A DNA stretch of 64,000 bases from a virus (lineage: Duplodnaviria; Caudoviricetes), in IMG/VR virus record IMGVR_UViG_3300016657_000022, positions 9,512-73,511 of that record; one strand, 5' to 3'. Below the pieces are notes generated by a model. It was not told where the DNA came from, did not search any database, and worked only from the letters and a program-made list of their open reading frames with translations. Positions 3,420 through 21,170 of the stretch are shown here, one piece after another. Positions within the stretch are counted from its first letter, which is position 1; each line of letters starts with the position of its first letter. Made by a program: the position numbers and the translations under genes.

Positions 3420-3814
3420 CGCCGTCGCCTACCATGGCGTTTGGTAGGGTCAAGCGCCAGATAACTGGCATCCCTGCCGTTCTGTTTGACCGGCTTGCGG
3501 TACTCCCTTTCCTCTGGTTCCGGCAACGCCCTAAAGTCGTTGTCGCTTAGCAGATCGAAAAGCTCGGGACCGATTATCGGAGTGATGTCGTCGATGATGA
3601 CCAGATCAGCCTTGAGACCCTGATAGAAGTCGCCTTCGAGGATCTTGTGGATGGTCAAGTGCCCATCCTTCTGTCCCACCAACATAGCGACAGTTCGGGC
3701 TTCCAGCTCGCCGAAATCCATTCCCGAAATTATTGGAATTTCTGGGGAATTTTCCAAAACTGCCATAGGTTCCCGCAGATAAGTTGGGGTAGGATGCCCC
3801 ATCCAACGATCCAT
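3416..3814 (-). CDS. hypothetical protein
   Basis: ORF track 3416..3895; start moved to MDRWM to avoid the lipoprotein ORF. Confidence 0.5.
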   Translation of the reverse strand: MDRWMGHPTPTYLREPMAVLENSPEIPIISGMDFGELEARTVAMLVGQKDGHLTIHKILEGDFYQGLKADLVIIDDITPIIGPELFDLLSDNDFRALPEPEEREYRKPVKQNGRDASYLALDPTKRHGRRRR

Positions 3815-3818
3815 GAAA

Positions 3819-3983
3819 TCAATCAGGCTGTCGGACTTGATCCTGCCGGTGGGCGTTCCGGTAGGCGATGATGCACTCTCCTTCGGGGTGTCCATGGCGA
3901 ACGCACTCCTGAATTGCAGTGGCCTGACCGGGTGCGTTGCACCCGGCCTGAACCAAGAGAAGGGAAAGGACCAGCCGCCTCAC
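3819..3983 (-). CDS. putative small lipoprotein (54 aa)
   Basis: Manual translation MRRLVLSLLLVQAGC|NAPGQ...: basic N-terminus, hydrophobic core, lipobox-like QAGC. The GTG start overlaps (GTGA) the stop of the displaced thyX tail. Confidence 0.5.
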   Translation of the reverse strand: MRRLVLSLLLVQAGCNAPGQATAIQECVRHGHPEGECIIAYRNAHRQDQVRQPD

Positions 3984-4021
3984 AAGACGTACTCACCCTT
4001 GAGCTGCTTGCGATGCTGGAT
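3980..4021 (-). pseudogene. displaced original 3' end of thyX (IQHRKQLKGEYVL*)
   Basis: 14 codons; 10 of 13 residues identical to the current ThyX C-terminus IQFRKTLKGEYVN*. Confidence 0.75.
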
Positions 4022-4461
4022 CACTTGTAATGCTCCACATAATCGGCAACACGACGTATGAGTGCTGGATCGTCTTTCAACTTACCAATAGCATGATTGC
4101 AACAGAGCATTCCTCTGAACTTATTACTCTTATGGCAATGATCTATTGCAAGTTCTTTCCAGCGCCCATCACCAGCATTGCCGCAGATGTCACATAAACC
4201 GTTGTGCGACATAAGGTATTCTAGCAACCAATCTTCAGCGGGTATCCCTAATCGCTTTAGACGATACTTAAATCGTTTCAGTGGATCATTGTGATACCTA
4301 GAACTCGATTGAGCATTTAATTTTTCCCGATTATTCTGTCGGTATGCTCTCATGTAATCCTTGTTGGCTTGTGCTTTTAGAGGATCAGCATCTCGCTTTG
4401 CTCTTGCACGAGCACAAGCCGCTCGCTTATTCTCGGTTGTTTTGAATACTTTAGTTGACAT
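4021..4461 (-). mobile_element. free-standing endonuclease VII-family homing endonuclease (possibly degenerate)
   Basis: CDICG...LAIDHCHKSNKFRGMLC.NHAIG.LKDDP.LIRR.ADY motif; markedly AT-rich relative to flanks. Confidence 0.85.
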
Positions 4462-5401
4462 ACTCACCTTTCAGGGTTTTCCTGAATTGTATCCAGCCGG
4501 AAAGATTGCCGTGCAGGTGGGAGTTTTCCCACTCAGGTTGCCACGACAGGTTCTTGCCGTCGCCAGCGTGACGACTCATCATTGCATCCTTCTGGTCGTA
4601 CCAGTCGGGGGTGCATTGGTGCTCAGCAGGGCTGGCGTGAAGCGGCGTGCTGCCGATCAGACGATCAGCGAGCTTGCGGTCTTCCTCGAACGTGGTCTCA
4701 CGACCATCGTGGGTGAGGTAGGACACACGGGCACACCGGGCCGTCGAGATCAGCTTCAGGTGAGCGAGCTTCTCCTCGTAACGGGGTTCGTCACGGGTGA
4801 TGCGGTTCACCTTGCAGTGAGTATAGGCGTCGTTCCAGTCCTGTGCCCGGCTGGCGAAGGGCAGATGCCACATGCCACGCTGGAGCATCTGGACAGGAGC
4901 AGCAGCGATGCTCTCCTTGATGCACTTGGCCAGCTCGTGGATCTCCGGCTGGGCATCTGGGTGGATACGCAAGGCGTAGAAGTTGTTCCAGCGGCTGGAC
5001 GTGATGAGCGTGTTTATATGTGCCCACGGCTCAAGGATGCGGTTGCCGATCTGCTTGTGCAGGCCGATCCAGTAGAGGATCAGGGCAAAGCCGATGGCCA
5101 TCCACATGGCACCGAGCCAAGCCTTCTTGGCTAGCCAGAGCTTCCAGCCGGTGAGCTGGGCACCTGCCTGCATATTGGGCTTGTTGCTGCCCCAGTAGAT
5201 GGGCATCGCCGGATCACGGATGATGTTCTTGATGAGACGCATGATCGGGATGGCACGGGAGCTAGACGCATTCCGGCTGAAGTCCTTGTGGGTCATTAGC
5301 TCGGCATGGATGAAGTGAGGATAGCGAGCCATGACGGTCGCCACTTCCTTGCCGGTCTCCTGCGACTTGCTCCTGAGAATGATGGTTGCAGAGATAGTCA
5401 T
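4451..5401 (-). CDS. thyX: FAD-dependent thymidylate synthase ThyX
   Basis: YPHFIHAELMTHKDFSRNASSSRAIP, ARCARVSY, HASPAEHQ motifs; start set at MTISA. Confidence 0.9.
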   Translation of the reverse strand: MTISATIILRSKSQETGKEVATVMARYPHFIHAELMTHKDFSRNASSSRAIPIMRLIKNIIRDPAMPIYWGSNKPNMQAGAQLTGWKLWLAKKAWLGAMWMAIGFALILYWIGLHKQIGNRILEPWAHINTLITSSRWNNFYALRIHPDAQPEIHELAKCIKESIAAAPVQMLQRGMWHLPFASRAQDWNDAYTHCKVNRITRDEPRYEEKLAHLKLISTARCARVSYLTHDGRETTFEEDRKLADRLIGSTPLHASPAEHQCTPDWYDQKDAMMSRHAGDGKNLSWQPEWENSHLHGNLSGWIQFRKTLKGEYVN

Positions 5402-5676
5402 TTCCGGTTCCTCAGCATCTCGGTATAGGCTCTCACCTTGTCGAGTTCGGGGTGGTGGTGGATCCACATTCCAGTGGAAGGATCGAAATGCTCACGGAAG
5501 TAAGCATCGAGATCCGGTCGGGTGGTGTCGATTGAGAAGTCAACGAGCTTACAACCTTCGTCGAACTCTTCATCAGAGATGATCGAGTCGTTGTCGATTT
5601 CATATGCGTAGGCAGCGGCTGCCAGCCTCATACGGATGAGGGTTTGTACCTCGGTCGGCGATCCCCATTCGGCCAT
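5398..5676 (-). CDS. stand-alone NAD+-dependent DNA ligase domain Ia-like (Nlig-Ia) protein
   Basis: AAYAYEIDNDSIISDEEFD...TGMWIHHHPEL resembles the Y-Y...ISDxEYD motif of ligase domain Ia. Confidence 0.55.
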   Translation of the reverse strand: MAEWGSPTEVQTLIRMRLAAAAYAYEIDNDSIISDEEFDEGCKLVDFSIDTTRPDLDAYFREHFDPSTGMWIHHHPELDKVRAYTEMLRNRK

Positions 5677-19617: not shown

Positions 19618-19965
19618 TCAATCAGGTAGGGTGATAGTAATTGCGACGACTTCCATGTCCTCGCGACGACGATGCGGTGTGGGTGTGACGCTGATGTCCT
19701 CGTAGTAGCCGTCCCATTGGTCGCCACCACGATGAGCCGTGAACTTGCCTTGCAGCCACGAGGAGAGCAGATTGTTGGCTGCTTTCTTGGTGGTGTAGCT
19801 GCGGATCTGCATGTCCTTCTCATAGCGAGGAGGCCAGCTTGAGCGATCTGCGAAGTCCACTGGTTCAAGGTGTGAGCCACCTCGGCCATCACGACGCTGA
19901 GGTCGTGGGAGGTACATGTGCGTGCCTTTCACCCGAACCGCATATTCGGTCAGGTGGACAGGCAT
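19618..19965 (-). CDS. hypothetical protein
   Basis: Start moved to MPVHL (TAATG overlap with the upstream stop). Confidence 0.55.
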   Translation of the reverse strand: MPVHLTEYAVRVKGTHMYLPRPQRRDGRGGSHLEPVDFADRSSWPPRYEKDMQIRSYTTKKAANNLLSSWLQGKFTAHRGGDQWDGYYEDISVTPTPHRRREDMEVVAITITLPD

Positions 19966-20439
19966 TAGAACGTGCCCCAGATGTTGTAGCCAGCCTGCCT
20001 CATCTCGCCGGTGGCTGCGAAGTAGTGCATCCACACGTTGTCGAAATAGAGGTTGGGATAGCTGGCCTTGTCGCAGTGGACGAACATCGGTGCGATGTCC
20101 TCGTGCCTGAGACCGGCAAGGCCACAGCCAATGCAGGTCATCTGGAACGTCAGCTCAGGGTGGCCACGAACATATGCGAGGAAGCCCTGCACATAGTCCT
20201 TGATGGTGCTGAGGCTCAGCGTGTCACCGACCACCATGCTCTCGCTGTTGCGACCCTCATGGTTGCGGATCATCTTGAAGCCCTTGGTGGGGATGGCGAA
20301 GCTCTGACCGAAATGGCCATAGCTCAGTCCCCAACGGGCACCACGTTCCTTGTATGCGAAACGGGCGGCACCGCCTCCGTGGATACCAGCTTCATTACTG
20401 CCGAAACACGAAGACCATTTTGTTCGTCTGAACAGTCAT
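19965..20439 (-). CDS. macrodomain-like protein (FVFGSN/GxHGGGAA/AIPTK/TCIGCGLAG family), +1 frameshift after codon 12
   Basis: ATG 20439 (RBS GGAGG) reads MTVQTNKMVFVF then CGG CAG TAA; the +1 frame continues FGSNEAGIHGGGAARFA...FAIPTKG into ORF 19965..20273. Confidence 0.75.
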
Positions 20440-20442
20440 GAT

Positions 20443-21084
20443 CTACCTCCTTTGTTTTGATGTGTTGATTGGGGTTGTCAGAGCAGTAATAATATCCATG
20501 CTCTGACGCGATTGTCGTTGTTTTACTCTGGCATAACTGATGCCAAAATGTTTGCACCATCCTGAGATGGTGTTCTGAACTCCATTGATAGTAATCATTT
20601 TGGAGTTGGTGCTGTTGGTTGCTTGAGTTTGTCTGGTTGCCCAGACGCAATTGGTGGGTTCGTAGTCCTTGGTTCCATCCAACCTTTCAATTGTATGGTC
20701 CTTGGGTCTCGGCCCCATGTCTGCGAAGAAATTCTCAAACCCATTTGGTCCAGACCACCGGGCACAGACAGAGATGTGCTGGTAAATTCCGGGCTGCCCG
20801 CACCTCTGGTGCATGGCAACCCAAGATCTGTAAGCGCCTGTGTGATTTCCACGTTCAGCTTGACCGTGTTTTATATTGGTGTTTGTAACCGACTCTGATC
20901 GGAAGCATCCGCAAGATGTAGTGTTGAGATGCCTTACCCATGCGATAGGCCTTTCAATGATATTGCCACAATCGCACTCAAAGAATGCTGCTCTGGCTTT
21001 GCCCTGCTTGGGTGCCTCGCCTTGATATGTCAGGCGTGTATTGGGAAACCTCTGGCCGACTTGATATTGGATAGCTGCTGGCAT
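20443..21084 (-). mobile_element. free-standing HNH-type homing endonuclease
   Basis: CDCG...SCGC...HG...YRSW.AM.QRC...VCARW...FENFFADMGPRP..HTIERLD...YEPTNCVWAT; AT-rich. Confidence 0.88.
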
Positions 21085-21131
21085 TTTTGTCTCCTTGTAT
21101 CCCTAAGGATAACAACCAAAGACAAACATGT

Positions 21132-21170
21132 CTAGCTACCGAACACGAAGATCATCTTGTTCAATTCCAT
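21132..21170 (-). pseudogene. displaced original 5' end of the macrodomain gene (MELNKMIFVFGS*)
   Basis: Matches NKMVFVF-GS of the downstream copy; start overlaps the end of the SLOG gene. Confidence 0.75.

Follow-up and report, generated by a model that had tools for sequence, protein, structure and literature searches.

The question raised by this locus is how an endonuclease gene can lie within the 3' end of thyX while thyX still reads through to a complete C-terminus, and which of the two thyX tails found there is the ancestral one. The DNA analysed is a stretch of 64,000 nucleotides (the window), which spans most of its source, a 73.5-kb IMG/VR viral contig. Its ThyX is approximately 50% identical to the ThyX proteins of N4-like phages, for example Erwinia phage Ea9-2 and Achromobacter phage phiAxp-3; thyX is conserved but missing from some N4-like genera (PMC11934525). 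The thyX gene, its new tail, the HNH endonuclease gene, a stranded copy of the thyX tail (the relic) and a small ORF are all located on the minus strand (Table 1), where thyX reads ...GNLSGW-IQFRKTLKGEYVN-TAA at 4492..4451. The inserted cassette is positioned 13 codons before the end of thyX, directly after the Gly-Trp codons, with a 3-base ambiguity in its boundaries (GAT is common to both junctions). An earlier note on this DNA had claimed that a second copy of the thyX tail lies past the HNH stop, that this displaced copy overlaps the start of the next gene, and that the endonuclease ATG falls inside the replacement tail. All three features are present: the copy at 4021..3980 matches the working tail at 10 of 13 residues, its stop overlaps the GTG of the 54-amino-acid ORF (GTGA, 3983..3980), and the HNH start, whether ATG 4461 or GTG 4467, overlaps the last thyX codons within 4451..4492. 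The first base of the relic is the last base of the HNH stop, and the relic is out of frame with the HNH gene.

Table 1. Features of the thyX locus, in window coordinates.
Feature	Position	Strand	Basis or remark
Hybrid thyX CDS, 316 aa; native body to Trp303 plus cassette-borne tail	4451..5401	-	ORF list
Inserted cassette, 471 nt	4022..4492	-	Absent from collinear contig L002; GC ~0.43 vs flanks ~0.60
Replacement thyX tail, IQFRKTLKGEYVN + TAA, in frame with the thyX body	4451..4492	-	GC 0.36
Endonuclease VII/HNH-type gene, ATG 4461 (alternative GTG 4467)	4021..4461	-	Pfam PF02945
Collapsed second zinc knuckle, Cys-Cys-Asn	4096..4104	-	Relatives have Cys-x-x-Cys-Asn
Stranded ancestral thyX tail (relic), IQHRKQLKGEYVL + TGA	3980..4021	-	Matches L002, P0131, P0132, P0133 and P0137
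Small downstream ORF, 54 aa, GTG overlapping the relic stop	3819..3983	-	Hydrophobic N-terminus followed by Cys

At the DNA level the two tails are identical at 24 of 42 bases (57%). When the approximately 128,000 13-mers from the six reading frames of the window were compared with the ThyX tail, the runner-up agreed at only 6/13, and the resemblance of the two tails is thus not due to chance. Their compositions differ. Third-position GC is 0.78 in the thyX body and 0.79 in the relic, versus 0.50 in the new tail and 0.36 in the HNH gene, in agreement with the claim that an AT-rich working tail is paired with a displaced copy of phage-typical codons; overall GC falls from ~0.60 to ~0.43 across the insert. 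The new tail keeps the family-invariant Gln, Arg and Lys residues.

The polarity of the two tails was established by comparison with relatives that do not carry the endonuclease. Contig L002 encodes a ThyX 86% identical in protein and 81% identical in DNA to that of the window, has the same gene order as the window (thyX, small ORF, 159/174-aa gene, 105-aa gene) and lacks a nuclease gene. There the flanks of the cassette join directly, and the Trp codon leads into a working thyX tail that agrees with the window relic throughout its first 21 bases (21/21). This permits the inserted block to be defined as 4492..4022, and the two contigs display a presence/absence polymorphism of 471 nt at a precise site. 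L002 also possesses the GTGA overlap and a 23-aa counterpart of the 54-aa small ORF. Members of the window's 90% ThyX cluster (92–94% identical) end in IQHRKQLKGEYVS or in ...TA, that is, in the relic type (IQHRKQL...), and share the rare Lys of the relic. The closest relatives, judged from proteins, are P0002, P0005 and P0131–P0137; they would appear to be without the nuclease, given the tails they carry and how rare close HNH homologs are.

The earlier note had called the downstream copy ancestral and proposed an alignment with endonuclease-free relatives, which on the opposite view should carry the upstream end. The ends found were of the relic type, and the IQFRKTL... working tail of the window is absent from L002 and from the closest (92–94%) ThyX proteins. 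It is unique within the 90% cluster, although its 13 residues are too few for a tree. Relative to the four closest relatives, 4 of the 12 window-specific ThyX residues fall in the last 16 positions (p = 0.0017). On these alignments the downstream copy is the ancestral thyX end. A megablast search of the region against cultured phages returned no near-identical record.

No intron or other RNA family was detected by Rfam in window 3700–4800 (E <= 1), which points to an intron-less insertion with a supplied C-terminus. The thyX gene has its own stop (4451–4453) before the nuclease body, and no in-frame intein arrangement exists; the proposal that the insertion operates without splicing is borne out on both counts. 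A scan for sigma-70 promoters and terminators gave nothing above shuffles.

The inserted ORF specifies a 146-aa protein which matches Pfam PF02945 (Endonuclease_7) with E = 1.5e-15. The family profile matches the Hpy99I structure (3fc3) at 1.3e-10 and T4 endonuclease VII at 3e-4, the alignment to both covering the second Cys-x-x-Cys and then the catalytic Asn. This places the protein in the HNH/Endonuclease VII family, with a beta-beta-alpha-metal fold, a family which includes known homing enzymes. The best match to HNH proteins of cultured phages is in Kuravirus myPSH1131 (42%), where the gene is not adjacent to thyX. In the window protein the Asp-His-Cys-His block and the Asn are present and the second zinc knuckle has collapsed to Cys-Cys-Asn through a 6-nt in-frame deletion between 4102 and 4101, with the loss of two residues. 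The Cys-x-x-Cys-Asn spacing is found in 71/71 distinct relatives from the fetched loci and in 10/10 protein homologs; one of the latter, P0121, starts at the ATG, is 96% identical and has an intact knuckle. Since the two residues are lost from a knuckle that is invariant in 81 relatives, the window copy of the nuclease is probably inactive, in keeping with the decay that such genes usually undergo once they are fixed. The end of the nuclease, ...DYVEHYK, was also considered as an older thyX relic and rejected: Hpy99I, a structural relative, ends alike (...EYLKKYE), indicating that this is the native C-terminus of the fold.

The ThyX of this allele scores 23.3 bits against Pfam Thy1, just below the cut-off of 24.8, while its relatives carry PF02511, and its profile gave no sequence-level match to the PDB. 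An AlphaFold model (pLDDT 83) was matched by Foldseek with a probability of 1.00 to the ThyX structures of T. maritima and PBCV-1. The protein possesses His29 and Asn76 where 126/126 other homologs have Arg and Gly, respectively, and Asn59 where 94% of homologs have Asp. These three residues may reflect relaxed constraint on thyX in this phage, and because two of them occupy otherwise universal positions, activity of this ThyX allele is not to be assumed.

The arrangement is not confined to the window. The order thyX, new tail, HNH gene and relic recurs in three further contigs from two diverged lineages (L006/L088 and L087). In L006 and L088, whose ThyX and HNH proteins are ~53% and 58% identical to those of the window, thyX ends GW-IQFRKTLEI-stop and is followed by an HNH gene ending ...YL-IQHRKLLEI-stop. 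In L087, with an HNH protein 59% identical to that of the window, thyX ends in an AT-rich tail within which the HNH gene starts; beyond the HNH stop comes a relic richer in GC, which overlaps the ATG of the next ORF (ATGA; 39 aa). In the window, in L006/L088 and in L087 alike, the first codon of the relic is the Ile/Gln codon that follows Trp. As judged from 65 distinct empty alleles, the insertion point falls midway through the best-conserved block of the thyX 3' end (GGC-TGG, then CAG, CGN and AAG), so that diverged thyX genes are interrupted at the same codon inside a conserved target. Among 80 further IMG/VR thyX loci the cassette HNH gene occurs only in contig L006; the others are single-tailed. 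Recurrence to the codon, patchy distribution, foreign composition and a conserved target together form the comparative signature of a homing endonuclease gene. From this sequence comparison, the arrangement is a property of the nuclease family and extends beyond the window phage alone.

Ten HNH homologs were found, five of which read in frame into a ThyX-type tail at their end. In L006 (2998–3456), L088, and proteins P0124, P0125 and P0127–P0129 the relic is an in-frame extension of the nuclease ORF, which terminates at the former thyX stop, with the result that gene callers report nucleases with a borrowed ThyX C-terminus. One branch of the HNH family, with L087 (242–775), P0123, P0126 and P0129, possesses an additional N-terminal HNH extension of ~30 residues with a Cys/His pattern (PCKNGH...GNCxQC), which may be an added zinc-finger DNA-binding module.

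The reading which best accommodates these results, and which we regard as likely, is that of a free-standing Endonuclease VII/HNH homing-endonuclease cassette which is specific for the 3' end of N4-like thyX and carries its own spare tail. The cassette sits between the Trp codon and the Ile-Gln-x-Arg-Lys codons. Since insertion here would cut off 13 codons with invariant residues, the cassette carries its own copy of them, with a stop and in frame, and this spare tail would restore a whole ThyX without splicing. The nuclease would probably be translated from the thyX message via the start that overlaps the spare tail. The native tail is displaced downstream, where it still provides the next ORF with its ribosome-binding region and start overlap, which is probably the reason that the relic persists. 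The nuclease is expected to cut or nick the empty thyX allele of a co-infecting phage at the GGC-TGG/ATC-CAG...CGN-AAG block, whereupon repair would copy tail and nuclease from the donor, with the thyX body and the relic serving as homology arms. The occupied allele would escape cutting because its site is split and the adjoining codons are respelled; that the recoding of the tail protects against recutting, as the earlier note had suggested, is our inference as well. The logic of cutting empty alleles in co-infection and copying the element by repair is established for homing endonucleases (PMC2988022).

The source of the new tail bears on the most tenable alternative, an improbable one in our estimation, in which the thyX tail was duplicated locally when the nuclease inserted (e.g. 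through faulty break repair) and the upstream copy diverged in place, under selection to escape recutting, instead of being brought in with the nuclease by another phage. The lineage-specific Lys and nearly identical Gly-Glu-Tyr-Val codons are indeed common to both copies, and the last codons of the new tail resemble the local relic more than do its first codons: the last 12 bases of the two L006 copies are identical (12/12), and the window copies agree at 13/15 bases (hand count), a resemblance that would not be expected if a foreign tail had simply been imported. Divergence is concentrated beside the insertion point, with a pooled p of 0.011 in a half-by-half test (p = 0.12–0.43 for single loci). 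Two processes could each account for such a gradient: gene conversion over short tracts between the two tails, and selection acting for difference only close to the cut site. The gradient is a weak pointer to recoding-based protection. Against an origin in place stands the IQFRKTL shared by the window and L006 cassettes, spelled with differing synonymous codons, ahead of HNH genes that are only 58% identical and beside relics that differ (IQHRKQL in the window, IQHRKLL in L006, i.e. QL vs LL after Arg-Lys). Convergence would require the same multi-base codon changes twice, and a tail travelling with the nuclease is favoured over independent recoding. The new tail moreover has an AT-rich composition like that of the nuclease gene, and an unrelated, endonuclease-free thyX, L148, naturally ends in IQFRKTLKNEYIR, which is near-identical to the new tail of the window; a new-type tail can thus be the native end of another phage.

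It is considerably less probable that the HNH protein is a fixed accessory nuclease, functioning for example in DNA processing or in competition with other phages, and that the duplicated tail is left over from a single old insertion. Phages commonly carry Endonuclease VII-type genes, which have varied roles in them, and homing at this locus is a prediction from sequence comparison. This view is difficult to reconcile with the patchy occurrence of the gene (1 of about 78 other thyX loci), its identical, codon-precise site in thyX genes only ~53% identical, its foreign composition and the decay of the window copy, all of them features that typify a homing element, not a conserved function. The reverse polarity, with the upstream tail native and the nuclease inserted after the thyX stop bringing a tail fragment at its own 3' end, is the least credible; it draws on the nuclease ORFs of L006, L088 and several homologs being in frame into the downstream tail, but for this window it is already contradicted by the alignments, since it is the downstream copy that agrees with the working tails of the closest relatives, as protein and as DNA, that shows host-like codon usage and that retains the native overlap with the following ORF, whereas none of this holds for the upstream copy.

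The homing cassette with a spare tail has its nearest counterparts in the mobile endonuclease ORFs (mORFs) of fungal mitochondria, which make gene hybrids of atp6, atp9, cox2 and nad3 in Glomus sp. (Beaudet et al. 2013, PMC3630166); atp6 of Allomyces macrogynus is cited there as a further hybrid (PMC3630166, citing Paquin et al. 1994). As at the thyX locus, a gene core is followed by an in-frame foreign C-terminus, an endonuclease ORF and the native C-terminus downstream, and the native copy is the one closest to relatives. The DNA identity of the two copies is 63.5% in Glomus atp6 versus 57% here. The mORFs encode LAGLIDADG or GIY-YIG enzymes, lie in the genomes of organelles and replace from tens up to hundreds of codons, whereas the thyX cassette encodes an Endonuclease VII/HNH protein in an N4-like phage, replaces 13 codons and has the nuclease start inside the replacement tail. 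With a different nuclease family and host, the cassette works like a mORF without being one.

Among T4-type phages, mobE splits nrdA in Aeromonas phage Aeh1, and a mobA/gene 60 cassette is known (Edgell et al. 2010, PMC2988022). Like the thyX cassette, these are free-standing HNH-type homing genes in a conserved gene of nucleotide metabolism or replication, with no intron or intein, and are expressed from the message of the host gene, as would be the case for thyX. In these cases, however, the host gene yields two separate polypeptides or is bypassed in translation, while ThyX stays in one piece because the cassette supplies the missing end. The homing endonucleases of T4 td, nrdB and nrdD, likewise nucleotide-metabolism genes, are intron-borne (PMC2988022). 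Intron- and intein-borne endonucleases share with the thyX cassette a highly conserved target stretch and the preservation of gene function, which here is achieved at the DNA level by duplication and not by splicing. The review of T4 mobile elements lists introns, split genes and the gene 60 case, and end replacement is absent from it (PMC2988022). Within the literature that could be searched, no precedent of gene-end replacement in phages or in N4-like thyX was found.

There are four recognised ways in which phages accommodate a homing endonuclease gene inside a coding region, namely the intron, the intein, gene splitting and translational bypass. The thyX locus and its relatives would represent a fifth, the spare gene end, which has so far been described mainly in fungal mitochondria. 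It would explain short orphan duplicates of gene ends in phage genomes, and it carries a warning for annotators that nuclease ORFs are possibly extended wrongly into relic tails. With a 13-codon tail and a 146-aa nuclease it offers a compact model of how selfish nucleases spare the host gene and move gene segments between phages.

It is possible, though we consider it doubtful, that Endonuclease VII-type genes of this kind form a phage 'cut-and-rescue' family, each member recognising one spelling of the variable codon of thyX Gln-x-Arg-Lys and carrying a tail in which another residue stands there. At this position the working tail and relic have Phe/His, Phe/His and His/Tyr in the three DNA loci; a fourth pair, Tyr/His, would come from P0004 and P0124, putatively on one contig. 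The difference is not significant, since random tails would differ in ~70% of cases (a hand estimate from residue frequencies). If true, the proposal would imply allele-specific spread and the shuffling of gene ends between distantly related N4-like phages.

Two neighbours of the locus were also noted. Upstream of thyX lies a 92-aa ORF (window 5398–5676, minus strand) that matches Pfam Nlig-Ia. It corresponds to the N-terminal NAD-binding domain of DNA ligase in free-standing form, and its stop codon overlaps the start of thyX (ATGA). Downstream, it is not certain that the 54-aa small ORF is protein-coding. Within it, at window 3928–3946, lies a perfect 8-bp stem with a 3-nt loop (CCGGGTGC-AAC-GCACCCGG), which is kept in L002 with a different loop and has no T-run after it. 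This hairpin, and not a lipoprotein signal, may account for the 'Gly-Cys-x-Ala-Pro-Gly' that is conserved in the small ORF.

A second, unrelated HNH ORF (21084..20443, 213 aa) is located at window 20395–21170 on the minus strand. It is preceded by a stranded gene start (MELNKMIFVFGS-stop) which overlaps the stop of the upstream gene near 21165, and is followed by a new start with GGAGG before it (ATG 20439, MTVQTNKMVFVF...). After the 12th codon the frame of this new start is off by one base relative to a long downstream ORF ending near 19965, which indicates that the gene is frameshifted or starts elsewhere. This locus would be the mirror image of the thyX case, a replacement of the 5' end.
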